The notes beneath the pieces were generated by a model, which was not told the origin of the DNA, made no database searches, and saw nothing but the letters and a program-made list of their open reading frames with translations. This document shows positions 10,782 through 47,196 of a DNA stretch of 64,000 nucleotides, one piece after another. Each line of letters opens with the position of its first letter. Position 1 is the first letter of the stretch. The translations under genes were made by a program, and so were the position numbers. Source of the stretch: an uncultured beta proteobacterium (GTDB taxonomy: Bacteria > Pseudomonadota > Gammaproteobacteria > Burkholderiales > Casimicrobiaceae); assembly GCA_963755065.1 (NCBI GenBank), contig CAVWIM010000018.1, positions 242,278-306,277 on the forward strand, read 5' to 3'.

Positions 10782-11790
10782 GTGCACAAATTCAAGGCCT
10801 ATCGCACATTCGAGGAGAACAAGGTCGTCTCGAGCCGGTTCGTCGACATGTCGATCGACGAACTTGGACCCCGGCGAGGTGGTCATCCGGACCAAATATT
10901 CGACGATCAACTACAAGGATGCGCTGTCGCACAACGGCGCCGGCAAGATCATGCGCAAGTATCCGACCAACGCGGGAATCGATGTGGCCGGCACCGTGGA
11001 AGCATCGGCAGACCCGCGCTTCAAGCCGGGCGACAAGGTCATCGTCACGGGCTACGACATGGGCGTCGCGCACGACGGCGGCTATGCGGAACATGTCCGC
11101 GTGCCCGCCGACTGGGTGGTGCGGCGGCCGGAGAGCATGACGGCTTTCGATGCGATGACCCTCGGAACCGCGGGCTTCACCGCGGCGCTGGCCGTGCTGC
11201 TGATGGAACACAACGGCCTGACACCTTCGGCAGGGCCTGTCGCGGTCACCGGCGCCACGGGGGGCGTCGGCTCGGTCGCGATCGAGATACTGGCGAAGCT
11301 GGGCTATCACGTGGTCGCGATCACCGGCAAGCCGGAGGAGGCCGCGTATCTCAAGGACATCGGCGCGTCGGAAGTCCTTCTGCGGCAATCGCTCGATGTC
11401 ACGAACATCCGGCCGCTCGGGAAGGCGACGTGGGCCGGGGTCGTAGACAACCTGGGCGGCGATCTGCTGGCGTCGCTGCTGTCGATGATGAAGATCGGCG
11501 GAACCGTGGCGGCGGTCGGGCTCGCGGCCGACTACAAGCTCAACACGACGGTGATGCCGTTCATCCTGCGCGGCGTGCGCCTGCTGGGCGTGGACAGCGC
11601 GAACTGCGACATGTCGCTGCGCCAGAAACTGTGGAACAAGCTGGCGGTCGAGTGGCGCCCGGACCGCGTCCACGATCTCGTCCGCACCATCGACTTCGAC
11701 GAACTGCCGACTCATTTCGATCCCTACCTCAAGGGCCTGGTCCGCGGGCGCACGGTCGTGCGCATCGCCCCCGATACGCACGGAGGCTGA
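10782..11790 (+). CDS. YhdH/AcuI-family NADPH-dependent oxidoreductase (acryloyl-CoA reductase-like)
   Basis: YSTINYKDAL, GTAGFTAA, VTGATGGVGS, TVMPFILRGVRLLGVDS; RBS aggaga; frameshift near 10865. Confidence 0.85.
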
Positions 11791-11850
11791 TCTAAAGCAA
11801 GGCGCGACTCGCCGCCGGCCCGCACAATCGGCGCAGGGAGGAAGCGTCAA

Positions 11851-13756
11851 ATGCCCACGTATCGGGAGTTCTATCGCCGTTCGCTCGCCGACCGGGACGC
11901 GTTCTGGCGCGACGAGGCGGCGCTCATCGATTGGCAGACGCCGTTTGCGTCGGTGCTCGACTACTCGCGGCCGCCGTTCGCGAAATGGTTCGTCGGCGGG
12001 CGCACGAATCTCTGCCATAACGCGATCGACCGCCATCTGGCCGCGCGCGCGGAACAGGCGGCGGTCATCTACATCTCCACCGAAACCGGCGCTGCGACGC
12101 GCTATACGTTCAGCGAGCTGCACGCCGAGGTAAACCGGTGCGCGGCGGTGCTGCAGAGCCTGGGCGTGGGACTCGGCGACCGCGTCCTCATCTACATGCC
12201 GATGATTCCCGAAGCGATGTTCGCGATGCTCGCGTGCGCGCGCTTCGGCGCCATCCATTCGGTGGTCTTCGGCGGCTTCGCCGCGGCGAGCCTTTCGACG
12301 CGCATCGATGACGCGCGTCCCAAGGTGATGTTCACGGCGGATGCGGGCATGCGCGGCGGCAAGCCGGTTCCGTACAAGCACTTGGTGGACGAGGCGATAC
12401 GGCTCGCCGCCCATCCGCCGCGTTCCGTCGTGATCGTGGACCGCGGCATCGACCGCGATTTCCCGCGCGTGGCAGGCCGCGACATCGACTACGCGACGCT
12501 GCGCGCGGCGCACATGGACGCCAGCGTGCCTTGCGCGTGGCTCGAGTCGAGCGAGCCCTCGTACATCCTCTATACGTCAGGCACGACCGGCAAGCCCAAA
12601 GGCGTGCAGCGCGACACGGGCGGCTATGCCGTTGCGCTGGCCTCGTCGATGCGCCGCATTTTCAACGTTGCGCCCGGCGAGACGATGTTCACGACCAGTG
12701 ACATCGGCTGGGTCGTCGGCCATTCGTACATCGTCTACGCACCGCTCATCAACGGCTCGACGACCATCCTGTACGAAGGCTTGCCGATCCGGCCCGATCC
12801 GGCCATCTGGTGGAAGATCGCCGCAGACGAAAAGGTCACGACGATGTTCAGCTCACCCACGGCCATCCGCGTGCTGAAGAAACAGGACCCGTGCGTTCAT
12901 GAAGAAGCACGACGTGTCAGCGTTGCGATGTCTCTTCCTGGCCGGCGAACCGCTGGACGAGCCCACGGCGCGCTGGGTCTCCGACGCGCTGGGCAGCGTG
13001 GCGATCGTCGACCACTATTGGCAGACCGAGTCCGGATGGCCGATCCTGTCCGCGCACCCCGGCGTCGAAGACACGCCGCGCAAGTTCGGCAGCCCGTCTT
13101 TCCCCGTGTACGGCTACGACGTCAGGCTGCTGCACGAAGGTACCGGCAAGGAGGTGGCAGCGAACGAGAAGGGCGTACTGATGATCATGCCGCCGCTGCC
13201 GCCCGGCTGCATGACGACCGTGTGGGGCGATGACGAGCGCTTCGTGCAGACCTATTTCACGACCTTTCCGGACAAGCTCGCGTATTCGACATTCGACTGG
13301 GCGACGCGCGACGACGACGGCTATTATTTCGTGCTGGGCCGTACCGATGACGTGATCAACGTGGCCGGCCACCGCCTGGGCACGCGCGAAATCGAGGAGG
13401 CGGTGCAGGCGCATGCCGGCATCGCCGAAGTCGCGGTCGTCGGCATGGCCGATTCGTTGAAGGGGCAGATTCCGGTGGCGTTCGCGGTCGTCAAGGATCC
13501 GGCCAAGGTCGCGAGCGCCGCGGGTATCGCGCAAATGCGCAAGGAAGTGATGGACACGGTCGATCGCGAGCTGGGCGCCATCGCGCGGCCCGGCGCCGTG
13601 TATTTCGTGACGGTGCTGCCGAAGACGCGCTCGGGTAAGTTGCTGCGGCGATCGCTGCAGGCGCTCGCCGAGGGACGCGATCCGGGCGATCTGACGACCA
13701 TCGAGGATCCGGGCGCGCTGGATCAAATCAAGGCGGCGCTCGCGGTCAAGGGCTGA
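11851..13756 (+). CDS. prpE: Propionate--CoA ligase (frameshift ~12895)
   Basis: YTSGTTGKPKGVQRDTGGYAVAL, DHYWQTE, GRTDDVINVAGHRLGTREIEE, LPKTRSGK. Confidence 0.92.
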
Positions 13757-13854: not shown

Positions 13855-14913
13855 GTGCCCGCCTCGGTTCCCATCCTCGCATCGTCATCCCATCCCGCAG
13901 CACCGTCGCACGTTCCGCTCACTGCCGTCATGCGTGGCGGCGCGGTCGAGAGCGTGCACATGGGCTCGGTGGCGGTCGTCGACCGGCAGGGCCGCGTTCT
14001 TTACTCCGCCGGCGACGCGGCGACCATGACCTTCACGCGCAGCGCGCTCAAGCCGCTGCAAGCCCTGCCGTTCGTTGCCGGCGGGGGCGTCGAGCGCTTC
14101 GGCTACACGCAGCAGCAGGTTGCATTGCTGTGCGCCAGTCACACGGGTGAGCCGCGCCATGTCGACGCCGTCGCGGACATGCTCGCCCGCGCCGGCAATA
14201 CCGAGGGCGACCTGCAGTGCGGCACCCATGCGCCCACGTATTTCGACTTGCGCGGCGACGTGCCGCCGCCGCCGCCGTATTCGCCGCTGGCGCACAACTG
14301 TTCGGGCAAGCACAGCGGCATGCTGGCCTATTGCGTCCAGTGCGGCCTCACGAAGCACGACTATCTGGCCTTCGACCATCCGTTGCAGCAGGCGATCCGG
14401 CGCGCGGTGGCCACCTTCACCGAAACGCCGGAGGACCGGCTGGTGGCCGGGATCGATGGCTGCTCCGCGCCCAATTACGCGCTGCCGTTATCGCGGCTCG
14501 CGCTCGCGTTTGCCCGCCTCGCGTCGTCGGATGTCGACGCAGATTATGGTCGCGCGCCGAAGCTGCTCGCCGATGCCATGACGGCGCACCCGGAAATGGT
14601 TTCGGGCGAGCACCGCAACGACCTTGCGCTCTCCCGCGCAGGACGGGGCGACTGGGTGCCCAAAGTGGGCGCGGAGGGGGTACAAGCCATCGGCATCCGC
14701 AGCCGCGGCTGGGGAATTGCCATCAAGGTGGCGGATGGGAATGCGCGCGGCTTGCACCCGGCGACCGTCGCCGTCCTGGATCAGCTGGGCCTCGTGGACG
14801 ATTTCGCGGCCGGAGTGCTGTCTGCCTGGGGCCATCCGCTGGTCAGGAATTACCGGGGCATCACCACCGGAGACATCCGGGCGGCGGTTGTCTTGGACAA
14901 ACTCTCGGCATGA
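13855..14913 (+). CDS. L-asparaginase, Rhizobium etli AnsA type (asparaginase II family)
   Basis: RSALKPLQA, NCSGKH, DGCSAP, KVGAEG motifs; start codon uncertain. Confidence 0.85.
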   Translation: MPASVPILASSSHPAAPSHVPLTAVMRGGAVESVHMGSVAVVDRQGRVLYSAGDAATMTFTRSALKPLQALPFVAGGGVERFGYTQQQVALLCASHTGEPRHVDAVADMLARAGNTEGDLQCGTHAPTYFDLRGDVPPPPPYSPLAHNCSGKHSGMLAYCVQCGLTKHDYLAFDHPLQQAIRRAVATFTETPEDRLVAGIDGCSAPNYALPLSRLALAFARLASSDVDADYGRAPKLLADAMTAHPEMVSGEHRNDLALSRAGRGDWVPKVGAEGVQAIGIRSRGWGIAIKVADGNARGLHPATVAVLDQLGLVDDFAAGVLSAWGHPLVRNYRGITTGDIRAAVVLDKLSA

Positions 14914-14944
14914 AGCGGTCCAGGGAATAACCATGGCAGTCAAT

Positions 14945-14971
14945 GAACTAAACCCCCCTCCGGCAGTCTGT
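14945..14971 (+). promoter_or_regulatory. Putative sigma-E (RpoE/AlgU) autoregulatory promoter
   Basis: GAACTA-N16-TCTGT, close to the GAACTT-N16/17-TCtgA consensus, ~120 bp upstream of rpoE. Confidence 0.7.
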
Positions 14972-15088
14972 TACGCCAAGCGTGCACTGCGCCTTTGCCC
15001 GGGCGACTCGCGCCGGAAGGCCACGGCTTCCGGCTGCCGTACCCGCAACCCGCGGGATAACAAACAATGAATCAGGGACGACCCGTCA

Positions 15089-15688
15089 GTGGGTGACCGC
15101 GAAGTCGACCAGCAGCTCGTGGAGCGGGCGCAACGAGGCGACAAGCGCGCGTTCGAGCTGCTGGTCATGAAATACCAGCGCAAGCTGGCGCGGCTCCTGT
15201 CGCGGCTTGTGCGCGACCCGGCCGAGGTCGAGGACGTGGCGCAGGAGGCCTTCATCAAGGCCTATCGCGCCCTCCCGAGCTTCCGGGGCGACAGTGCGTT
15301 CTACACGTGGCTGTATCGCATCGCGATCAACACGGCGAAGAACTACCTGGTCGCGCTGGGCCGGCGGGCGCCGACGTCCACCTCCTTCGACAACGAGGAG
15401 GCGGAAGGCTTTGAGGATGCGGAACAGTTGCGCGACAGCGCGACGCCGGAAGACGAGTTGATCGGCAAGCAGATTGCGGCGACGGTGAACCGCGCGATGG
15501 ATGCACTGCCCGAGGACCTGCGCACGGCGATCACGCTGCGCGAGATCGAGGGCTTGAGTTACGAGGAAATTGCCAGCGTGATGAATTGTCCGATCGGTAC
15601 CGTGCGTTCGCGGATCTTCCGCGCGCGCGAGGCGATCGCCGCCGAACTGCGTCCGCAGCTTGGCACCGATGAAACCCGGAGATGGTGA
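15089..15688 (+). CDS. rpoE: RNA polymerase sigma-E factor
   Basis: DQQLVERAQRGDKRAFELLV, SAFYTWLYRIAINTAKNYL, CPIGTVRSRIFRAREAI. Confidence 0.98.
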   Translation: MGDREVDQQLVERAQRGDKRAFELLVMKYQRKLARLLSRLVRDPAEVEDVAQEAFIKAYRALPSFRGDSAFYTWLYRIAINTAKNYLVALGRRAPTSTSFDNEEAEGFEDAEQLRDSATPEDELIGKQIAATVNRAMDALPEDLRTAITLREIEGLSYEEIASVMNCPIGTVRSRIFRAREAIAAELRPQLGTDETRRW

Positions 15689-16242
15689 TGAACGAGAATA
15701 TTTCGCGCCTGATGGATGGCGAGGTCGACCCCGCGGAATTCGAGCGCCTGTGCGCAGAAATGAAGGCGCCCGAGGCGCTGCGAACATGGGTGTGCTATCA
15801 CGTGATCGGCGACCAGCTGCGTGGCGCGCACGGCGTCGCGCCGCGCTTCGCGACGCGATTCTGCGCCGCGTTGGCCGCCGAGCCCACGGTCGTGGCGCCT
15901 CATTTGGCAACTAAGTCGGCAACTCATTTGCCGCCTCATTTGGCACAATCCGCGCATGGACGCGCAGGGCAAGTGGCGACGCTGGCCTGGGCGGTGGCGG
16001 CGACGCTCGCGGCCGTGACCGTCGTCGGCTGGACCGCGTTTTCGATGGTCGACGCCCCGCCCACCGCCATGGCCAAGGCGCGCGAGGCCACCACCGTCAG
16101 GGCGGCGCAAATCAAGCCGCCTGCGGACATTCCCGCGGACTACCTGCTCGCCCACCAGGAATATTCCCCGTCCGTGGTCATCCAGGGCGGGGTTCCCTAC
16201 CTTCGCGCCGTCGCCGTCACCGGAAGCGAGCCGCGGCCGTGA
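15682..16242 (+). CDS. rseA: Anti-sigma-E factor RseA/MucA
   Basis: ENISRLMDGE...WVCYHVIGDQLR N-domain, single TM, YLLAHQEYS; overlaps rpoE stop. Confidence 0.9.
   Translation: MVMNENISRLMDGEVDPAEFERLCAEMKAPEALRTWVCYHVIGDQLRGAHGVAPRFATRFCAALAAEPTVVAPHLATKSATHLPPHLAQSAHGRAGQVATLAWAVAATLAAVTVVGWTAFSMVDAPPTAMAKAREATTVRAAQIKPPADIPADYLLAHQEYSPSVVIQGGVPYLRAVAVTGSEPRP
15895..15942 (+). repeat. Imperfect 12-bp tandem repeat (4 units) inside rseA
   Basis: gcgcctcatttg/gcaactaagtcg/gcaactcatttg/ccgcctcatttg, encoding APHL ATKS ATHL PPHL. Confidence 0.8.
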
Positions 16243-30705: not shown

Positions 30706-31746
30706 TTACCGAATCGGCGGCGCGTACATGATGCCGCCCTTGTTCCACTGGTTGTTGAGGCCGCGCGGCAGTTTCAGCGCCGATTGCGGGCCCGACATTG
30801 CGCTCGAAGATTTCGCCGTAGTTGCCGACGGACTTGATCGCCCGGTAAGCCCACTCCTTGTCCAGGCCCAGCAGCTTGCCCGTGTCCTCGGACGTGCCGA
30901 GGATGCGCTGAACCGGCGGATTCGGTGCTCGATTTCATCTGGTCGACGTTCGCCTGCGTGATGCCCGTACTCCTCGGCTTCGAGCAGCGCGTAGATCGTC
31001 CACTTGACCATCGCGAACCACTCGTCGTCGCCGCGCCGGACCATCGGTCCCAGCGGCTCCTTGGAAATCAGCTCCGGCAGGATCACGTAGTCGTCCGGAT
31101 TCGGGGCTTCCTTGTTGCGGATCGACGCCAGACCGGACGCATCGGTCGTGTACGCCTGGCAGCGGCCCGAGAAGAACGCCTTCACGCTCGCCTCGAAGCC
31201 CTCGAACACCACGGGCTTGATCTTGACGTCGATCGACTTGAAGTAATCGGTCAGGTTCTTCTCCGTCGTCGTGCCGGACTGCACGCAGACCTCGGCGTTC
31301 TTCAGTTGCTTGGCGCTGGTGATCTTGCCCTTCTTCGGCACGATGAAGCCCTGGCCGTCGTAGTAGGTGACGACCGTGTCATGTAGAGGCCGAGCGACGC
31401 GTCGCGCGTCAGCGTGAACGTCGTGTTGCGCGAAAGGATGTCGACCTCGCCCGACTGCAGGGCGGTGAAGCGCTGCTGCGCGTTGAGCGGAACCCACTTC
31501 ACCTTCTTCGCGTCGCCCAGCACCGCTGCCGCGATAGCCTTGCAGACGTCGACGTCGAGGCCGACCCAGATTGCCCTGGCTGTCGGCGGCCGAAAAGCCC
31601 GCGAGGCCGGTGTTGACGCCGCACACGACCTGGTCGCGCTGCTTGATCGCGTCGAGCGTCTTGCCCGCATGCGCGTGGGCGGCAAACACCGCGCCACCGA
31701 CGACGAGCAGCGATGCGGAAATGATCTGGAGGGCGGGTTTGCTCAT
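30706..31746 (-). CDS. aapJ: General L-amino acid ABC substrate-binding protein, frameshifted
   Basis: Signal peptide, CGVNTGLAGFS, RFTALQSGEVDILSRNTT, ISKEPLGP, GGIMYAPPIR. Confidence 0.88.
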   Translation of the reverse strand: MSKPALQIISASLLVVGGAVFAAHAHAGKTLDAIKQRDQVVCGVNTGLAGFSAADSQGNLGRPRRRRLQGYRGSGAGRREEGEVGSAQRAAALHRPAVGRGRHPFAQHDVHADARRVARPLHDTVVTYYDGQGFIVPKKGKITSAKQLKNAEVCVQSGTTTEKNLTDYFKSIDVKIKPVVFEGFEASVKAFFSGRCQAYTTDASGLASIRNKEAPNPDDYVILPELISKEPLGPMVRRGDDEWFAMVKWTIYALLEAEEYGHHAGERRPDEIEHRIRRFSASSARPRTRASCWAWTRSGLTGRSSPSATTAKSSSAMSGPQSALKLPRGLNNQWNKGGIMYAPPIR

Positions 31747-31913
31747 GGGAATCTCCTTCGAGGGAAGCTTCGGAGTGCCGGCAAGGCCTGCGGGCGGACG
31801 ATGGCTTTGGATCCTGTCGGGTCGGATAATGACAAACCTTGCCCAGCAACACAAATCCCGCGGATGGACTCGGCCGACGCGCCCGCGCGATTCACTCGAC
31901 TCTCCCTCGCGGG

Positions 31914-34348
31914 TTACGCGAGCTTGAGATGGGGCGTCACTGCAAATATCGTCCCCGCAATGTCGACGGCGTAGCGTGCCCCAAGAATGCGTTCGTCCGA
32001 CAAAGGAGGTTCGCCGGAGATGGCGCGGGCATAGCCCATGGCGATGGCGCGGCCGTATTTGCGGCTGTAGCCGGCCGAGGTCAATTCGCCCACATTGCGA
32101 CCATCCATCAGGATGGGTTCGCCGCCCCAAGGAAACGCCGCGGAATCGTCGAACGTGAACGTCACGAGGCGCTTGCGTATCCCCGATTCCCGCTGCTTCA
32201 CGAGTGCGTCGCGTCCAATGAAGGGCGCGGCCTTGTCCATTTTCACGGCGTAACCAAGACCGGCTTCCCACGGCGTCTCGTCGGGCGACAACTCCGGGCC
32301 CCAGGCGCGCCGTCCGGCCTCGACCCGCAAGGCATCGATCGTGTAGTAGCCCGCATCCCGGAGGCCGTGCGGGCCGCCTGTGCCGCACAGAGCGTCGTAG
32401 AGCGTCACGCACTGGTCCGTCGGGACGACCATCTCGTAGCCGGGACCGCCCACGTAACTCATCCGGGCGGCACGCACGCGCGCGTGTCCGACGTCGATGT
32501 CCGCGGTCATCGAAAACGGCAATCCGGTCTTGGTGAGGTCGTCGGGAGATAGTTCCTTCAGCAACGCCTCGGACTTGGGACCCATCAGCGAGATCACGGA
32601 ATAGGCGCTGGTTACATCGACCAGCGCGGCGAATTCGGCGGGATCGATATGCCGCTCGATCCATGACGCATCGCGCGTCGCCTGCCCCGATCCCGTCATG
32701 ATAAAGAACGTGTCCGGATGAAGGCGCGTGATCGTCAAGTCGCTTTCGAATCCGCCGCGTTCGTTGAGCATCGCCGTGTAGACCATCCTGCCGATCGGCA
32801 CGTCGATTTCGTTCGCGCACAGCCGCTGCAGGACGGCGAGCGCGTCGCGGCCCTTGAGGATGAATTTGGAGAACGACGTCTGGTCGAAGACCACGACACC
32901 CTCGCGGCAGGCGCGCTGCTCGTCGAGGACGTACGGAAGCCAGTCCGGCGTGTCGAACGTGTACGGCGCTTCCGCGGCGCCTGGTGGCAGGAAGTAGTTG
33001 GCGCGCTCCCAGTTGAGCTTGGTGCCGAAGACGGCCCGCCTGGCTTTCAGGCGGTCGTACAGCGGCGAGCGGCGCAGCGGGCGCACCGTCTGCAATTCCT
33101 CGCGCGGCCAGCGCATCGCGTAGTGCAGTCCGAGGGACTCGACCGTGCGGTCGGCTAAGTGTTTTCGGTTCGCGTGGAAGGACGCGAAGCGCCGGATATC
33201 GACGTCCCAAAGGTCGAGCGGCGCTTCGCCTCCCACGATCCATTCGGCGACCAGCCGACCGGCGCCGCCGGCGTTCGCGATGCCCGCCGAGTTGAAGCCC
33301 GCGCACACGAAATAGCCCGCGACTTCCGGTGCCTCGCCCAGGATGAAATTGCCGTCCCCCGTGAAACTCTCCGGACCGTTCAACAGCATCCTGATCTCGG
33401 CCGTTTCGAGGCACGGCGTGCGGTGGATCGCGTTCGTCATCAGCACCTCGAACTGGTCCCAGTCCTCGGGCAGCAGCTGGAATTCGAACTTGTCCGGGAT
33501 GCGCGGCGGGTTCCACGGCTTGGCGACCGGCTCGAATCCGCCCATCACGAGGCCGCCGACTTCCTCCTTGTAATAGATGAAGCCGTCCGGATCGCGGATG
33601 ACCGGCAAAGCAGGGGTGACTCCGGGAATCGCCTTGGTGACGATGTAGAAATGTTCGGCGGAATAAAGCGGCACGTTGACGCCTGCCAGGCGTCCGAACT
33701 CGCGCGCCCACTGGCCGCCGCAGTTGACGAGCGTCTCGCAGGCGATTTCGCCTTCGTCCTCGCCGCGTTGCCAGGCGATGCCGGTCACGCGCCCGCCGCG
33801 CCGTTCGTACGCCTGTTACTTTCACGCCCTCGAATATCGCGGCGCCGCGCATCCGGGCGCCCTTGGCCAGCGATTGCGTGAGATCGGTCGGGTTGGCCTT
33901 GCCATCGCCGGGAATCCACACGGCGCCTGCAAGGTCGTCGGTGCGCAATATCGGCGCGATCCTTTGCGCTTCGGCCGGCGTCACATAGTCGAACGCGATA
34001 CCGAAGCTCTTCGCGCGCGCCATCTGGCGCTTGATCAAGTTGCATGCGCTCGGGCGTCTTCGCGACGTTGAGGCTGCCGCATTGCTTCCAGCCGGTCGCA
34101 AGGCCCGTCTCCTGCTCCAGCGTCGAGTAGAGCTCGATGCCGTACTGGCTCATCCGCGTCGCGTTGCGCGTCGCCCGCGTCTGCCCGACAAGGCCCGCCG
34201 CATGCCATGTGGTTCCGCAGGTGAGCTTGCCCTGTTCCAGCACGACGACGTCCGCGACGCCCATCTTGGCCAGGTGATAGGCGGTCGAGGCGCCGACGAT
34301 GCCGCCGCCGACGACGACGACGCGGGCATGCGATGGGGGAGCGGTCAT
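31914..34348 (-). CDS. GcvT-family FAD-dependent oxidoreductase (dimethylglycine/sarcosine dehydrogenase-like, ~810 aa), frameshifted
   Basis: [18 protein letters not shown] motif, [16 protein letters not shown]-terminal folate-binding domain ([29 protein letters not shown]). Confidence 0.88.
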
Positions 34349-34349
34349 G

Positions 34350-35211
34350 TCACAGCTTGAGGGTTGCCACACCCACGACGACGGTCGCGGCGCCGGCCAG
34401 GCGCGCCAGTCCGAAGCCTTCCTTCAACCACAGCGCCCCAATCAATGCCGCGAAGATCACCGAAGTTTCGCGCAATGCCGCCACGGCGGCGACGGGCGCG
34501 CGCGTCATGGCCCAGAGCACGATGCCATAGGCAGCCACGCTGCAGAAGCCCCCCACCAGGCCGCGGCGCCATTGCCTGCGAACATAGCCTGCCGCCATTG
34601 TGCCGCGGCGCGTGCCGATCCACGCCAGGAAGACGATGCCCTCGAGGAAGGTGAGCCACAACACATAGCCGAAGGCGTTGCCGGACGCGCGCGCGCCGGC
34701 GCCGTCGACCAGCGTGTAGATCGCGATGATGGCGGCGTTGGCGAATGCCCAATACGCCGCTGCCGGCGGATGGCGCTCGCGCCGCGCGAACGCGATGCCG
34801 ATGATGCCGATCGATATGAGCGCGATGCCGGCGATCACGTGCGCCTGCGGCAGTTCGCGCAGGAAGATCGCGCCGAGCACGGTGACCAGCAGCGGCGCGG
34901 TACCGCGCATCAGCGGATAGGCGAACGACAGGTCGCCGGTTCGGTACGCCTGCGCGAGTGTCAGGTAGTAGCCGAAGTGAATGACGGTGGAGGCCGCGAC
35001 GAAGACCCAGGCACCTGCCTCGGGAAACGGCAAGAACGGCAGCGCGAGCAGCGAGCACACGGTCGATCCCGGCGACGACCGTCGCCGTGTCGAGCAGCGG
35101 ATCGCCGCCGCCAGCCGACTTGAGCAGCGCGTTCCAGCCGGCATGAAGCATCCCGGCGCCCAGGACCGCAAGGGTGACGCCGAGCGTGAGTTCTACGGGG
35201 GCGGGCGGCAC
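34350..35211 (-). CDS. EamA/DMT family transporter (frameshift ~35070)
   Basis: LHAGWNALLK, GDLSFAYPLMRG, VAALRETSVIFA; multiple hydrophobic segments. Confidence 0.88.
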
Positions 35212-35750
35212 GCAACCGACTCCAGCGCGGCCACGAAATGCGCGAGCGGCGGCGTCGCCGCGCCTTCCACCTTGGCCAGGTCATCCCATAGCCGGACCCG
35301 GACGGCGTCCCGCGCAAACGGCTGCGCTATGAACGCGGCGGCCTCTTCCGGCGCAAAAATGCCGCCTTGCAGCACAAGGCTGCGCTTGGAATCGGCCGAC
35401 AGCGCTTCGTAATAGGCGTCGCGGGTTGCGCACAGGTAACGCTTCGCGTCGACATGCAGCCGGATCGGCACCAGCACATCATCGGGGAACAGCCCGCGCA
35501 GGAACGGCAGCGCCGCGTATTGGTGCAGGTCATCCACGCCCCGCATCGTCGGCGTTTCACCCTGGTCGTTCAGCAGGTGGCCCAGGTCGTGCAAAAGCGC
35601 GGCGGAGACGAGCGCCGGCAAGGCGCCCTCATCTTCGGCGCGCGCGGCCGTCTGCAGTGCGTGCTCGATCTGCGTGACCGGTTCACCGTCGTACGCGCGG
35701 CCGCCTTTGCGGGCGAACAGGATGCAGATATCCGAGATCGAGAGGGCCAT
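35193..35750 (-). CDS. phnZ: HD-domain phosphonate oxygenase, PhnZ family
   Basis: EPVTQIEHALQ, LLHDLGH, LHVDAKRYL, YYEALSADSKRSLVLQGG, RLWDDLAK; lies in a phosphonate operon. Confidence 0.88.
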   Translation of the reverse strand: MALSISDICILFARKGGRAYDGEPVTQIEHALQTAARAEDEGALPALVSAALLHDLGHLLNDQGETPTMRGVDDLHQYAALPFLRGLFPDDVLVPIRLHVDAKRYLCATRDAYYEALSADSKRSLVLQGGIFAPEEAAAFIAQPFARDAVRVRLWDDLAKVEGAATPPLAHFVAALESVACRPPP

Positions 35751-35757
35751 GGGCTCG

Positions 35758-37491
35758 TCAGGCGGCTTTCGGTTTGCGCTTTTGCCAGTTGCCCTTGCCG
35801 TTGCGCGGCTTGGCCATGACCGGGTCGTCATCCGGAGGTGTTTCAGGCTCGGGTTCCTTGAGGCGGGTTCGCGCCAGCACGCCGGCCTCTTCGAGGATCG
35901 GGTAGGCAATCGAGCAGATATGCGAATTGATGCGCTTCAAGTCCGAAATGAGGTCGAGGTGCAGCGACGAGGTCTCGATGCTCTCCAGCGTATTGCCGGC
36001 GAGGCGCGTGAGGTGCGAGTCGGCATAGGCGCGCTCCAGGTCGCGGAACAGCACCTTTTGCGCGAGCAGTTCCTGCGCGCTCTTCAGGTCGCCATTCAGG
36101 AACACGCTCATGCCGAGGCGCAGGTTGGCCACGAGGCGCGCGTGCAGGTCGCAGATCTCGGCCATGCCGGCTTCGGAAAAATTGCGATGCTTCTCGATCT
36201 TCTTCTCCTCGAGGTCGATCAGCACGCGCTCGATGATGTCGCCGACCTGCTCCAGGTTGATCGTGAACGACACGATGTCCGCCCAGCGCCGGCCTTCCTT
36301 GTCGTCGAGCGCCTCGCGCGAAATCTGCGTCAGATAGAGCTTCACCGCCGTGTACAGCTCGTCGACGATGTCGTCCTTCTGCCGCAGCCGTTGCCGCCAG
36401 CGCGCGGTCGTTGGTCTTCATGACCGTCAGCATGCCGTTCAGCATGTCTTCGATGACGTCGCCGATGCGCATCGCCTCGCGCGCGGCGTTGGCGATCGCC
36501 AGCGTGGGCGTGGTCAGCGCGGAGGGATCGAGATGGCGCGGCGCGGCAGGGTTGTCGGCCGCGCGCTTGGCGGGCAGCAGCCGCTCGGCGATGCGCGCGA
36601 TCCTTTCGGTCCAGAAGATGAACAGCAGCGCCAGCGCGACGTTGAAGCACAGGTGGAACAGCACGACTTCGCGCGCCTTGTCGAGCTCGAGGGCGTCGAT
36701 CCAGCCGTCGATATGCGCCAAGGAACGGAATGGCGATCACGCAGCCGATCAGCTTGAACAGGAAATTGCCGAGCGTGACGCGCCGCGCTTCGGGCGGCGA
36801 GCGCAGCGTCGACAGCATGCCCAGCAGGCCGCTGCCGAGGTTGGCGCCCAGCACCAGGCCGAGCGCGACCGGCAGCGCGATCACGTGCAGCGACGCCAGC
36901 GTGGCGACCAGCAGGACGACGGCCAGGCTCGAGTAGCAGAGCATCGTGAACAGCGCGGCGACCAGCATGTCGAGCAGCACGTCGCCGGTCAGCGACGCGA
37001 AGATCACCTTGACGCCGGCGGCCTGCACGAACGGCTTGGCGGCGACCGAGATCCACTGCAGCGCGAACATGATGAGGCCGAGGCCGATCAGGATGCGGCC
37101 GAAGCGTCCGACGTTCGTCGCCTGCAGCGTCAGGAACAGCGTCACGCCGACGAAGATCAGCAGCGGGGCGAGCCACGACAGGTCGAACGACAGGATCAGC
37201 GTGACGAGCGACGTGCCGACATCGGCGCCCAGCATCACGGCCAGCGCCGGCGCGGTGCCGATGAGGCCCTGGCCGGCGAAGGCGGCGACGATCAGCGCGG
37301 TGGCCGTGCTGCTCTGGATCAGCCCGGTGACGCCCAGCCCCGCAAGGAAGGCCGTAGAAGCGCTGGCTGATGCTCTTGCGCAGCACGCGGCGCAGGTCGC
37401 CGCCGTACAGCCGCAGGATGCCCGTGCGCACGATGTGCGTGCCCCAGACGAGCAGCGACACGCCGGCCAGCAGGTTGAGCAGCGTCTGCAT
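35758..37491 (-). CDS. Na/Pi cotransporter family protein with PhoU-like C-terminus (YjbB-like), frameshifted
   Basis: QSSTAT, LGADVGT, YSSLAV, LGANLG, C-terminal [19 protein letters not shown]. Confidence 0.88.
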
Positions 37492-37507
37492 CTGTCAGAT
37501 GCGCGGG

Positions 37508-41153
<3,646 letters not shown>

Positions 41154-41230
41154 TCACAGCGCGCGAAAGTGCGTCCGCCCCGTTTGCCGCGTCATTTTCC
41201 GCTAACCCGTTCGCCTGAAGGAGCACATCG

Positions 41231-42279
41231 ATGAAATTCCACCGAGGCTTTCGCTGGCTGTCGTCCCTCTTCGCTGCCGCGGCGTTCGCGCTGTATCGGC
41301 GAGCGGGTCGGCGTCCGCGCAGAAGACGTCAACTCCTCGTCTACACGGCGCTCGAAGCCGATCAGATGAAGGCCTATGCCGATGGCTTCAACAAGGTCGT
41401 GCCGAACATCGAAATCCAGTGGGTGCAGGATTCGACCGGCGTGATCACGGCCCGGTTGCTCGCGGAAAAGGCCAATCCGCAGGCCGACGTCATCTGGGGA
41501 CTCGCCGCGACCAGCCTCGTGCGGTTCGAACGGACGGCATGCTGACGCCGTACGCGCCAAGCGGCCTCTGCGGCCATCAAGGCGTCCTATCGCGACGCCA
41601 AGAACCCGCCGTACTGGTTCGGCATGGACGTCTGGGGCGCCACCGTCTGCTTCAACACCGTCGAGGCGGCCAAGATGAACCTGCCCAAGCCCGAAACCTG
41701 GCAGGACCTGACCAAGCCGATCTACAAGGGCAGGATCGTCATGCCCAATCCCGCGTCGTCCGGAACGGGCTACCTCGACGTCACGTCGTGGCTGCAGATC
41801 TTCGGCGAGCAGGGCGGCTGGAAGTTCATGGACGCGCTGCACGAGAACATCGCGCAGTACGTGCACTCGGGCAGCAAGCCGTGCGTGCTCGCGGGCAATG
41901 GCGAGTTCCCGATCGGCATCTCGTTCGAATACCGCGCCAACACGATCAAGGCCAAGGGCGGCCCGATCGACCTGATCTTCCCCAAGGAAGGCCTGGGCTG
42001 GGACCTGGAGGCGTTCGGCATCATGAAGAACACGAAGAAACTGGATGCCGCCAAGAAATTGGCGGACTTCGCGTCGAGCAAGGCCGCGATGGACCTCTAT
42101 GCCAAGAACTACGCGATCGTCGCCATACCGGGTGCGGCCATCCCATCTGCCCAATATTCCGGCTGACTACGAGTCCCAGGCTGGTCAAGAACGATTTCGC
42201 GTGGGCCGCCAACAATCGCGACAAGATTCTCGCGGAGTGGACCAAGCGCTACGACAGCAAGTCCGAACCCAAGAAATAG
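41231..42279 (+). CDS. Putative 2-aminoethylphosphonate ABC substrate-binding protein, frameshifted
   Basis: [61 protein letters not shown]; context with phnW. Confidence 0.85.
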
Positions 42280-42296
42280 ACGTCTGCCTGCGCCAA

Positions 42297-42321
42297 CGCG
42301 CCCCGCCTCCCGCGGGGCGCG
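42297..42321. other. GC hairpin after the binding-protein gene (possible mRNA stabiliser)
   Basis: cgcgccccgc-ctccc-gcggggcgcg, no U-tract. Confidence 0.45.
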
Positions 42322-42344
42322 CTTACATCACGGGGACCGCTCTC

Positions 42345-43420
42345 GTGACCGACGACTCCTACCTGCGGCTTTCGGGCATCAACAAGAGCTTCGGCAAATT
42401 CGAGGCGTTGAAGGACATCGCGCTGGAAGTCCGGCGCGGCGAACTGATGGTTTTCCTGGGCCCTCCGGCTGCGGCAAGACCACGCTGCTGCGCATCATCG
42501 CCGGCCTCGAAACGCAGGATACGGGAACGATCCACCAGGATGGGCGGGACATTTCGCGGCTTGCCCGCGATCCGGCGCGACTACGGAATCGTCTTCCAGT
42601 CCTACGCGTTGTTTCCGAACCTCACGATCCGCGCCAACGTCGCGTACGGACTCGTCAACCGCCGGCAGGCGCGCGGCGCGATCGCGGCGCGCGTCGCGGA
42701 ACTTGCTTAAAGCTCGTCGGGCTGCCCGACGCCGGCGCCAAGTACCCGGGGCAATTATCCGGCGGACAACAGCAGCGGATCGCGCTTGCGCGCGCGCTCG
42801 CCACCGCGCCGGGATTGCTGTTGCTGGACGAGCCGTTGTCGGCGCTCGACGCACTCGAACGCGTCCGGCTGCGCGGCGAAATCCGCGCACTGCAGCAGCG
42901 GCTGGGCGTGACGACCGTGATGGTGACGCACGACCAGGAAGAGGCGCTTTCGATGGCCGATCGCATCGTGGTCATGCATGCCGGCCGGATCGAGCAGGTC
43001 GGCACGCCGCGGGAAATCTACGAAGCGCCCGCGACGCCGTTCGTCGCTGACTTCGTCGGCAAGATCAATGTGCTGCCCGGCCGTGGCGGAAGGCGGAGGG
43101 CAATTCCGCGTCGGGCGCGGTTTCGCTTGCCGTCGCGCGCCCGGATATCGCGGCCGGCACGGCCGTGAAGCTTTACCTGCGTCCGGAAGAGATCGGGCTG
43201 AATGCCGCCGGCGCGCGTGAACGGCAATACGCTCGGCGCGCGGATCGCCAAGGTCGAATTCCTCGGCGCCTTCTGCATGGTGGGGCTGACGCTCGACGCC
43301 GGCGGCGCGCCGGCACTGGTCGCGAACGTGCCGCGCCAAGACGTCGACGAGGGCAACATGATGGCGGGGCAGTCCGTCACGGTGAGCCTGCCTCCCGACG
43401 CGCTGCGCATCCTTGGATAA
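42345..43420 (+). CDS. AEP ABC transporter ATP-binding protein, frameshifted
   Basis: GxSGCGKTT (across indel), [37 protein letters not shown]-like end. Confidence 0.85.
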
Positions 43421-43427
43421 GGGAGAC

Positions 43428-45201
43428 ATGAGCAGTGCAGCGGCAGCGGCACCGGCCGCATGCGCGGGGATCCTTGAGCACGCCTGCGATCCTCCCGGGA
43501 ACAAGGGCCGCGACCCGCCCGCGCGTTCACTGGCAGGACCGGCTGGCGCAAGGACTGCTGCTCGGTTGTTGCGCCGTGCTCGCGCTGTTCCTGCTGGGAC
43601 CGATGGCGAGCGATCCTGGTCGAAGCGTTCAGGACAAGGGCGGCGCATTCGTCGGATTGCTGCAATTCCGCGAATATTTCGCCACGCCGGCATTGATGAG
43701 CTCCATCTGGAATACCTTCTGGGTGGCGGTCATCGTGACCGCCATCACCATTCCGCTCGCGTTTGCGTACGCGTATGCGCTCACGCGCTCGTGCATGCGC
43801 GGCAAGATCATTTTTCGCGTCATCGCGCTGACGCCGATTCTCGCGCCGTCGCTGCTGGCGGCGATTTCGTTCATCCAGTGGTTCGGCAACCAGGGCGCGC
43901 TGAAGTGGCTGCTTTATGGCGCCTCGATTTACGGGCCGCTCGGCATCATCGTCTCCGCCATTTACGCGACGTTTCCGCATGCGCTGATGATCGTTCTCAC
44001 GTCGCTGCTCCTGACCGATGGCCGTCTCTACGAGGCGGCGGAGTCGTTGCGCACGCCGACGTGGCGCAGGTTTTTCACGATCACGCTGCCCGGCGCGAAA
44101 TTCGGGCTGATCAGTGCCACGATGGTCGTGTTTTCGTACACCGTCAGCGACTTCGGCATTCCCAAGGTGATCGGCGGCAACTTCAACGTGCTTGCGGTGG
44201 ACATCTACAAGCTGGTGATCGGCCAGCAGAACTTCAACAAGGGCGCCGTGGTCGGCCTGGTGCTGCTGTTTCCCGTGCTGGTCGCGTTCATCGTCGACTG
44301 GATCATGCAGGGCGCCAGCAGGCACTGTTCTCCGCGCGTGCCGTGCCCTATGCGCCGAAACCCGCGCCGTGGTTCGACCGCGGGATGTTCGTGTACTGCC
44401 TCGTCATCGCGTCTGCTGCTGCTCGCCGTGCTCGGCATGGCGGTCTACACGTCGTTCATCAAGTTCTGGCCGTACGACAAGTCGATGAGCCTGCGCCACT
44501 ACGTCTTCGGACTCGTCGACGCGGGTGCGCTGGACGCCTATGTCAACAGCCTCAAGATGGCGCTCGCGGTGGCGGTGGGCGGCACGGCATTCATCTTCGG
44601 CTGCGCCTACCTGCTCGAAAAAACGAGGGGGGTGCCGCTGCTCAAGGCGTTCGTGCGCCTTCTCGCCGCCATTCCGATGGGCGTGCCCGGCATGGTGCTC
44701 GGCTTAGGCTACATCCTCTTCTTCATCGATCCAGCCAATCCGCTGAACGGACTCTACGGGACGCTCGGGATCCTGGTGTTCTCGACCGTCGTCCACTACT
44801 ACACATCGAGCCACCTGACGGCAGTGACGGCGCTGAAGGCGCTCGACAGCGAATTCGAGGCCGTCTCGGCTTCGCTCAAGGTGCCGTTCTACAAGACGTT
44901 CTTCCGGGTGACCGTGCCGGTTTGCCTGCCCGCGATTCTCGACATCGGCCGGTACCTTTTCGTCAATGCGATGGTGACTATTTCCGCCGTCATTTTCCTG
45001 TATACGCCGCAGACGCGATTGGCGTCGATCGCGATCCTCCGGCTCGACGAGTTCGGCGAGATCGGCCCCGCCGCCGCAATGGCGACGCTGATCGTGATCA
45101 CCTCCACGGCCATCTGCCTTGTCTATGCCGTGCTGACGCGCTTCATCGTCACGCGCACGCAGGCGTGGCGAAGCCCGTCGTTCTCTAAGGAAATGCCATG
45201 A
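43428..45201 (+). CDS. AEP ABC transporter fused double permease, frameshifted
   Basis: LAPSLL, RLYEAAESL, DFGIPKVIGG, EFEAVSASLKVP; two EAA loops. Confidence 0.85.
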
Positions 45202-46351
45202 GCCTTCATTCCCGCGATCCCATCCTGCTCACACCCGGCCCGCTGACCACGTCGCTCGCCGACCAAGATGGCGATGCTGCGCGACTGGGGCTCGTGGGAC
45301 GCGGAGTTCAACGCGGTGACCGCGCAGGTCCGGCGCAAGCTCACCGACATCGTCCATGCGAGGGAAACCCACACGTGCGTGCCGATGCAGGGCAGCGGGA
45401 CGTTCGCGATCGAGGCGGCGGTCAACACGCTCGTGCCGCGCGCGCGGCCACGTGCTGGTGCTGATCAACGGCGCCTACGGCAAGCGGTTCGCGAAGCTGA
45501 CCGAGATGATGGGACGGCGGCTGACGACGTTCGAAACCGCCGACGACGTGCCGACGACGGCGGACGACGTCGACCAGATGCTCGCGAAGGAGCCCTCGAT
45601 CACGCACGTGGGCCTCATCCATTGCGAGACGTCGACGGGCATCCACAATCCTCTCGCCGCGATCGCCGAAGTCGTGGCGCGCCATGGCAAGGGACTCATC
45701 GTCGACGCGATGAGCTCTTTCGGCGCGCTGCCCATCGATGCGCGCGCGACCCCCTTCGACGCGCTGATCGCGGCCTCGGGCAAATGCGTCGAGGGGCCGC
45801 CCGGCATGGGCTTCGTGCTGGTGCGCAACGGGCTTGCTCGAACGCTGCGCGGGCAATTCGACGTCGTTCGCACTGGACCTGGCCGACCAGTGGGCGTACA
45901 TGGAGAAGACGACGCAATGGCGATTCACGCCGCCGACGCACGTCGTCGTCGCGCTCAATGCGGCGCTCGACCAGTACATCGCCGAGGGCGGGCAGCCCGC
46001 GCGGCTTGGCGCGCTACACGGCAAATTACGACGACGCTCGATGCCGGGATGCGCGAGCTGGGGTTCAAGCCGTTCCTCGATCCTGCGATCCAGGCGCCGA
46101 TCATCGTGACGTTCCATGCGCCCGCCGATCCCCGCGCATACGCGTTCAAGGAGTTCTACGATCGCGTGCGCGACAAGGGCTTCATCCTGTATCCCGGCAA
46201 GCTCACGCAACTCGAAACCTTTCGCGTCGGCTGCATCGGCGCCATCGGTCCGGACGAGATGCGGCATGCGGTCAACGCCGTGCGCGATACGCTGCTGGAA
46301 ATGGGCATCAAGCACGTCGCGCCGGCTCACGCGCGGCGTGCGGCTGCCTGA
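45198..46351 (+). CDS. phnW: 2-aminoethylphosphonate--pyruvate transaminase, frameshifted
   Basis: [59 protein letters not shown]. Confidence 0.95.
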
Positions 46352-47196
46352 GCGCGCAAGAGCCCCTTCAGTCCGTTGTACGCCGGCATCGCGGGATCTA
46401 CGGCGCCCTGGCGCAGCAGGAAGTCCAGCACGACGAGGCTCGCGTCGGCCGTGACTTCGTCCGGCTCGTCGGTCAGGGCGATCAGCCGCGCCGCCTCGTC
46501 CATCGCGACGAGGCGGTGGTCGACGGCTTCGCCATCCTGGTTGGCGGGAGCGAAATCACCGGGGAGCCACAGGTCATGCACGAAGATCGTCTCCGACTGA
46601 AGGCCGTCCGGCTGCTCGCGCCAGATGTGCACGGCGCCTGCAGGCTGCGCGCGCAAGGCCAGATCCGTCTTTATGCCGGCTTCCTCCCACGCTTCCTTGG
46701 CCAGCGTCTCGCCGACCGTTTCCCCCGCCGCGATGCCGCCGCCCACGAGGTTGTCGAGCTTGCGAGGATCGATGGCCTTGCCCTCGCTGCGGCGCGCGAA
46801 CCACATCTGCGCCTTCGGCGGCCCACGGACGACGCCATTGATATGCGCCGCCCAGGTATGCACGCCGAAGTAGCGCGCGGCCGCCCGCTCGAGCAGAAAC
46901 CAGGGCGGGGCGCCGAAAGCCGGCGCCGCCGCGTAGAGTTCGTCCCGCCACTGCGTGAGCGCCCCTTCGGCGGCCAGCGTCGCGGTAACATCCGCCATCG
47001 CCTTGCTGCGCGACTGTTCGTCGGCGAGCGAGGGAAGGAACGACACGCCGTCGCTGTTCACCGCAAAGACATCGGCAAAGTCCGCGAGCCGTGCCGCGCG
47101 GTGCTCGTCGAGCCAGCCCGCAATGGGCCGTCCCGACTCGCAGCGGACGCAGCAAGTGGCTCCGGCGGTCGCGAGCGCACGCCGAAGGCGGGTCAA
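46327..47196 (-). CDS. DUF4743/NUDIX hydrolase
   Basis: [32 protein letters not shown] Nudix box, NQDGEA. Confidence 0.8.

Follow-up and report, generated by a model that had tools for sequence, protein, structure and literature searches.

A putative folate-domain flavoenzyme of 2-aminoethylphosphonate gene clusters, a candidate N-methyl-aminophosphonate demethylase

Dimethylglycine and sarcosine dehydrogenases (DMGDH and SARDH; human 5L46, rat 4P9S and 4PAA) and the dimethylglycine oxidase of Arthrobacter (DMGO; 1PJ5) share a DAO-FAO_M-GCV_T-GCV_T_C domain layout, and their chemistry is the oxidation of an N-methyl group with transfer of the C1 unit to tetrahydrofolate (THF). Here we describe a gene of the same layout, at 34348-31914 on the minus strand of a 64,000-nucleotide stretch of DNA (the window) from an uncultured soil bacterium of the Casimicrobiaceae (GCA_963755065.1, contig CAVWIM010000018.1). 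Its predicted chemistry is like that of the known enzymes, but it stands in a cluster for the catabolism of 2-aminoethylphosphonate (AEP) rather than in a choline or betaine cluster, and where those enzymes take a carboxylate, its predicted substrate is a phosphonate. Judged from its sequence and its neighbours, the product is a member of a distinct DMGDH-type subfamily with putative covalent-FAD amine-oxidising and THF-binding GcvT domains, and a regular accessory of AEP catabolic clusters. We put at about one in two the probability that it acts as a THF-dependent N-methyl-AEP demethylase, which would feed AEP to the transaminase PhnW.

The nearest analogy for such a reaction is 4-methylaminobutanoate oxidase (MabO), a formaldehyde-forming, DMGO-like protein with FAD and folate domains that demethylates a secondary amine with a distal acid group. 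Its substrate is a carboxylate, it belongs to the nicotine pathway of plasmid pAO1, and it stands outside the sequence set of our trees. The MabO of Paenarthrobacter nicotinovorans is listed among PF01266 relatives in the study of PbfB, PbfC and PbfD (PMC10590968). These three are likewise accessory PF01266 flavoenzymes of AEP clusters; they bring N-methyl-AEP (M1AEP), which is common in nature and not usable by PhnW, into the hydrolytic pathway (PMC10590968), and their oxidative deamination is the only described entry of N-methyl-AEPs into such pathways. They are, however, single-domain proteins of about 370-450 aa without GcvT, whereas the enzyme described here has 810 aa and a GcvT half, and they cleave the other C-N bond: a route to AEP and formaldehyde was considered by Zangelmi et al., tested and excluded for PbfC and PbfD, which give phosphonoacetaldehyde and methylamine (PMC10590968). 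The enzyme described here, by contrast, is predicted to yield AEP and a folate-bound C1 unit, and hence to depend on PhnW. If this is true, it would be a second and chemically different entry, in which the methyl carbon is saved as a C1 unit and PhnW is kept in the route, and a large part of the DMGDH family that is so far unannotated, found among abundant Burkholderiales of soil and in another proteobacterial class, would gain a substrate. In the set of papers searched, none connects a GcvT-domain or DMGDH-type enzyme with the breakdown of AEP, and none describes a folate-dependent AEP demethylase. New in this study are the alternation of an HD-domain gene with PbfA across loci, a clade tree spanning two classes, a Lys150/Trp742 signature, an altered folate motif in one subclade and the diagnosis of assembly errors in the window.

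Architecture and phylogeny of the enzyme

Pfam models matched the gene in pieces: DAO in three frames (95.9, 53.2 and 71.8 bits), FAO_M (67.3 bits), the whole GCV_T model (239.5 bits) and GCV_T_C (49.4 bits). Over its whole length the protein can be aligned with human and rat DMGDH (5L46 and 4P9S; E about 1e-135) and with Arthrobacter DMGO (1PJ5; 1e-97), at an identity to the mammalian enzymes of only 38-40%. The original prediction had claimed a GTTWHAAG motif and a C-terminal GcvT domain, and both are there, the former as CGTTWHAAG. The histidine of this motif (His49 of TTWHAAG) aligns with His91 of human DMGDH, the site of covalent FAD attachment (PMC5082570), and together with the pair H234 and Y260 it is invariant in 64 of 64 sequences compared; DMGDH, SARDH and DMGO share the TWHAAG histidine, the His/Tyr pair and the canonical THF residues. 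The latter are Met56, Asp101, Tyr197 and Glu204 in human GcvT (PMC9551070). Their counterparts, mapped by motif and spacing (D-x-S-x-F, G-G-x-x-x-D and Y-x-G-x-x-G-x-E) and without a structure, are F494, D538, Y633 and E640, all kept in 33 of 33 clade members; a Phe stands at the first of these positions in human DMGDH also. Clade members share on average 62% identity over the GcvT half and 72% over the FAD half, a sign that both halves are under constraint. No NCBIfam model exists for the clade, the top matches being generic GcvT models below their cut-offs. On TIGR03364, the model for PbfB-type enzymes, the enzyme reaches only 46.4-60.4 bits against a cut-off of 285.

In a maximum-likelihood tree of 64 sequences, and in a second tree of 54 rows under a site-heterogeneous model, 32 phn-linked copies and one unlinked copy (L134) fall on one side of a single branch, with SH-aLRT values of 100 and 99, respectively. 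The clade excludes the 31 unlinked homologues and the paralogue found in the same genus. Lys150 and Trp742 are shared by all 33 members, from both classes, and by none of the 31 others; position 150 is Gln in the bacterial neighbours and His in human DMGDH.

Linkage to AEP clusters across families and classes

The closest homologues are clearly enriched near phn genes; absence of such enrichment would have refuted the original prediction. The 80 best loci taken from species-representative genomes all belong to Casimicrobiaceae-like metagenome-assembled genomes (MAGs), at 74-90% identity. Of these loci, 72 have at least 1 kb of DNA upstream of the enzyme gene, and in all 72 a gene for an EamA-family membrane protein lies directly upstream of it (median gap about 43 nt); 55 have at least 8 kb, and all 55 contain core phn genes. 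Homologues at 57-68% identity, from a sister genus and four other families of Burkholderiales, again follow EamA in phnS2T2U2W / gntR-phnA-phnY clusters, and those at 51-53%, from a further family (f263), have EamA, alanine dehydrogenase, phnW and phnU2T2 no more than a few kb away. The best matches in another proteobacterial class, at 54-57% identity, stand beside phn_lysR-NaPi-phnW-phnA-phnY-PbfA or EamA-phnW-phnA-phnY-phnS2T2, and in each a DeoR regulator gene precedes that of the enzyme. Loci L151-L153 of that class come from genomes that appear to belong to isolates. At 50% identity and below, homologues have no phn neighbours. PhnW is present in every genome of the genus that has the orthologue, and in two family members without the enzyme, phnY and phnW are missing too.

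In three clusters (L132, 7937-9055; L137, 6867-7985; L138, 12275-13393), an alanine dehydrogenase gene is inserted next to EamA and the DMGDH-like gene; its product presumably regenerates pyruvate for PhnW. In loci L070, L102/L026 and L127, gntR-phnA-phnY is missing, yet phnS2T2U2-phnW is kept opposite (NaPi)-EamA-enzyme, a layout that ties the enzyme module to the importer and PhnW rather than to PhnA and PhnY.

An ordinary dimethylglycine or sarcosine dehydrogenase might also come to lie near a phn operon, by inherited synteny or by way of the neighbouring amino-acid importer aapJQMP, which follows the gene in the window and in close relatives. The full-length identity to mammalian DMGDH would fit this explanation, and since one family supplies most of the loci, the counts overstate their independence. 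Other families and another class have nevertheless kept the linkage through rearrangement and lack aapJ, which is already gone from most Casimicrobiaceae loci; linkage that outlasts rearrangement across families and classes makes inherited synteny alone hard to accept. The clade is also separate from the unlinked homologues and has signature residues of its own. Furthermore, the same genome encodes a DMGDH-like paralogue, 42% identical (G000 contig C9:75379-77733; L161 11332-13764), that is fused in an operon with a GbcA-like Rieske oxygenase, so that an ordinary betaine-type role would already be covered elsewhere in the genome. We consider an ordinary dehydrogenase very unlikely; the context and the clade signature argue for a substrate other than dimethylglycine or sarcosine.

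The paralogue gene overlaps the gene for the GbcA-like Rieske oxygenase (376 bits, under the cut-off of 670) in every case: in G000 and in loci L109, L148, L149 and L150. Both proteins might be joined with the phn-linked enzyme in a series of three betaine-like demethylations of trimethyl-AEP, in which the Rieske oxygenase would remove the first methyl group, from the quaternary amine, the paralogue the second and the phn-linked enzyme the third, giving AEP; we think this series unlikely. As for the surroundings of the pair, it is divergent beside gntR-phnA-phnY in L109, adjoins a second PhnS2T2U2-like importer in L149 and L150 (the latter also with a betaine-homocysteine methyltransferase) and adjoins egtB/egtD in G013, the congener used for annotation.

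Substrate, chemistry and the HD-domain gene

If the enzyme is an N-methyl-AEP demethylase, its substrate would be N-methyl-AEP, and possibly N,N-dimethyl-AEP, neither of which PhnW could use. The flavin would oxidise the N-methyl C-N bond, the THF held by the GcvT domain would capture the iminium or formaldehyde equivalent as 5,10-methylene-THF, and the electrons would pass to electron-transferring flavoprotein (ETF) or to quinone; ETF alpha is encoded in the genome. The AEP product would then be converted to phosphonoacetaldehyde by PhnW, to phosphonoacetate by PhnY and to acetate and phosphate by PhnA. From the gene order we infer that the enzyme gene would be transcribed last in a unit phnR-phnA-phnY-NaPi-HD-EamA-enzyme, opposite phnS2T2U2-phnW. 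The first of two alternatives in the original prediction, demethylation of N-methyl-AEP to AEP for PhnW, fits these data in that phnW is present in the locus (45198-46351) and in all orthologue-bearing genomes of the genus. No PbfB-type enzyme (TIGR03364) scores above the cut-off in the genome of the window (G000) or in G013. The proposed activity is directly testable, given that syntheses of M1AEP and M2AEP and coupled assays have been published (PMC10590968).

Several observations weigh against this proposal. For every member of the clade the case is drawn from sequence and gene context, and most of the linkage data come from one family, whose related genomes are not independent observations. 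No phn gene is found within about 8-10 kb of one member, L134. The enzyme gene is also optional: the operon ends at EamA in two genomes of the genus and at phnY in one. In G012 and G014, which lack the enzyme, no Pbf-type substitute follows EamA, where only IclR regulators, a pentapeptide-repeat protein, an APS kinase and an AMP-binding enzyme were found. The signature residues Lys150 and Trp742 are defined at the level of the alignment. The gene is frameshifted in this assembly, and a comparison of assemblies makes an error the likely origin of the shifts. Finally, subclade A, to which the window protein belongs, carries the changes E636G and L637P (in the SYTGELGWE motif), Y681R, G763S and H479Q at positions that are invariant in all other sampled members, and it gains two arginines, Arg414 and, by Y681R, Arg681. 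The chemistry of its folate domain may therefore differ.

These altered residues also bear on the idea that the enzyme works in the AEP pathway on another substrate or by another chemistry: on N-methylated 1-hydroxy-AEP, on some other N-alkyl aminophosphonate or on a phosphonolipid head group, or by deamination to phosphonoacetaldehyde with the GcvT domain modified or repurposed. Linkage identifies a pathway and not a substrate, and most clusters hold PbfA, which acts on hydroxy-AEP, or the HD-domain gene. PbfC and PbfD show that PF01266 enzymes can turn M1AEP into phosphonoacetaldehyde (PMC10590968). In the AEP cluster of L138 (family f263), a 527-aa phospholipase-D-family protein that may release a phosphonate head group from lipids is encoded between EamA and phnW (14311-15894). 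Set against this, the enzyme retains the Asp and the canonical contacts to THF, and conservation of the whole GcvT domain across two classes is the hallmark of C1 capture after N-demethylation. The constant presence of PhnW likewise speaks against direct formation of phosphonoacetaldehyde, because an enzyme of that kind would not need PhnW. We regard a different substrate or chemistry within the pathway as possible but doubtful.

The second alternative of the original prediction placed the enzyme downstream of the PhnZ-like, HD-domain oxygenase encoded two genes upstream in the window. Here, the oxygenase would cleave N-methylated hydroxy-AEP, and the DMGDH-like enzyme would demethylate the sarcosine or dimethylglycine released. 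There is a precedent in TmpB, a relative of the HD protein that yields glycine betaine. The HD protein (35193-35750, minus strand, 185 aa, intact) scores 230.9 bits on TIGR03276 (cut-off 214.6; 226 for the G013 orthologue), and its H...HD...H...H...D ligand spacing and Tyr20/Glu23 pair presumably match those of PhnZ. The HD protein is below the equivalog cut-offs of the TmpB model NF049941 (151.9 against 300 bits) and of the PhnZ1 model (133.4 against 300), and no PhnY*/TmpA-type 2-oxoglutarate hydroxylase was found among the ORFs of the cluster, as annotated through the G013 locus, with no genome-wide search made for one. The gene is also optional and alternates with PbfA. Between phnY and EamA, HD is present in 30 of the 55 loci, PbfA (hydroxy-AEP ammonia-lyase, with matches of 666-684 bits) in 22, both in two and neither in five, and HD occupies two different positions. 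Since HD is missing from 25 of the 55 enzyme-bearing loci, the flavoenzyme does not depend on it, which speaks against a PhnZ-coupled route through sarcosine or dimethylglycine. That HD and PbfA so rarely share a locus suggests two alternative solutions for the use of plain hydroxy-AEP, and so points to plain hydroxy-AEP as the substrate of HD. Demethylation downstream of the HD oxygenase thus appears highly improbable, and the original prediction is supported in part: its linkage to phn genes holds, its first alternative fits and its PhnZ-coupled one is disfavoured. PhnX accompanies PbfA in four loci.

Gene order and frameshifts in the window

The locus was annotated by tblastn and profile searches, by way of the intact syntenic locus of the congener G013 (94% complete). 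In this order, gntR, phnA, phnY, NaPi, HD, EamA and the DMGDH-like gene occupy the minus strand; on the divergent side, taken from the G013 annotation, phnS2, phnT2, phnU2 and phnW are followed by a 340-aa gene of no assigned function and a HAD-IB phosphatase gene. On this annotation the locus is a complete predicted PhnW-PhnY-PhnA route for AEP with its importer. Starting from the regulator, a GntR-family gene of the phnR_burk type lies at 40576-41091 (ends approximate; TIGR03338 164.6 bits, under the cut-off because the ORF used is partial), followed on the same strand by phnA (phosphonoacetate hydrolase; 38970-40205, start approximate), which has at least three frame changes and an orthologue with 609 bits on TIGR02335 (cut-off 408). 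Next come phnY (phosphonoacetaldehyde dehydrogenase; 37508-38913), frame-broken and located by tblastn, with an orthologue at 852 bits on TIGR03250 (cut-off 636), and a Na/Pi cotransporter gene with a PhoU-like C-terminus and about three frame changes (35758-37491). On the plus strand, the AEP-type ABC importer phnS2-phnT2-phnU2 spans 41192-45190 and is frame-broken, its orthologues scoring above the cut-offs of TIGR03261, TIGR03265 and TIGR03262 (522, 508 and 785 bits, respectively). phnW (AEP-pyruvate transaminase; 45198-46351) is spread over at least four frames, whose partial scores add up to about 406 bits (cut-off 400.8), and its intact orthologue reaches 502 bits.

The junctions agree with the original prediction, which had phnZ overlapping EamA and the EamA stop 2 bp from the ATG of the enzyme gene, at the end of the gntR-phnA-phnY-Na/Pi run. 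The Na/Pi gene stops at a TGA (35760-35758), and HD runs from an ATG at 35750 to a TAG at 35195-35193. The EamA gene (34350-35211, minus strand; identified by Pfam EamA) starts at a GTG at 35211, with a 19-nt overlap with HD, carries one extra base near 35071 and ends in a TGA at 34352-34350, one base before the ATG of the DMGDH-like gene at 34348. The last frame of that gene ends at 31914. The EamA protein is related to TIGR03340 (phn_DUF6), still its best-matching family, with 164 bits for the window fragment and 178 bits for the intact G013 orthologue against a cut-off of 288. A scan of 31400-41400 for promoters and terminators gave no signal above the shuffled expectation. A 392-aa ORF upstream of gntR was rejected, being merely the opposite-strand shadow of phnS2.

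The original prediction had described a flavoprotein of about 810 aa. Without two extra bases the gene would give 810 aa, but it is split over three frames in the window (34348-34037, 34059-33796 and 33794-31914), with single-base insertions near 34036 and 33795, and these frameshifts had been missed. Relatives carry an intact orthologue of 805-815 aa, and tblastn with the 812-aa G013 orthologue recovers the window gene in three pieces at 83-90% identity. phnA, phnY, NaPi, phnW, aapJ and aapQ are frame-broken as well, with 13 or more frame changes over about 11.5 kb of coding sequence. Taken by themselves, the two frameshifts in the gene and those across the operon would suit a true pseudogene, with much of the operon decaying in this organism. 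Similar 1-nt insertions, however, occur in every other gene over 24 kb, transporters included, at about one per kb of coding DNA, and a comparison of window positions 24000-47950 with the 84%-identical congener gave 175 alignment indels of lengths other than multiples of three (a number that includes intergenic ones and double counts in places where the reference loci overlap), mostly insertions, with nearly every gene broken. The broken genes are still 83-91% identical in their residues to intact orthologues and have no in-frame stops beyond the shifts. The genome is in 25 contigs with a marker completeness of only 80%, a combination typical of uncorrected long-read MAGs, and it is most closely related to 'MFD' MAGs of Casimicrobiaceae built from long reads. 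Since nearly all genes are hit in a genome of this kind, the breaks are read, at high odds, as assembly errors, the DMGDH-like gene is probably intact in the cell, and a true pseudogene seems very improbable. An origin of the indels at GATC methylation motifs was considered and dropped, since only 10 of the 175 have a GATC at a distance of up to 8 nt, which is not above the chance level. Any ORF-based reading of this window calls for frameshift-tolerant methods.

Two further features of the locus may be recorded. The gene of about 340 aa that follows phnW (46255-47139, plus strand) is conserved, being found at the same place in G013 and G521; it has no Pfam or NCBIfam match, and the HAD-IB phosphatase gene follows it. 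Relative to the window, G013 has about 230 bp of extra DNA between EamA and the enzyme gene (L014, 8412-8621) and about 1 kb after the enzyme gene (11059-12108).

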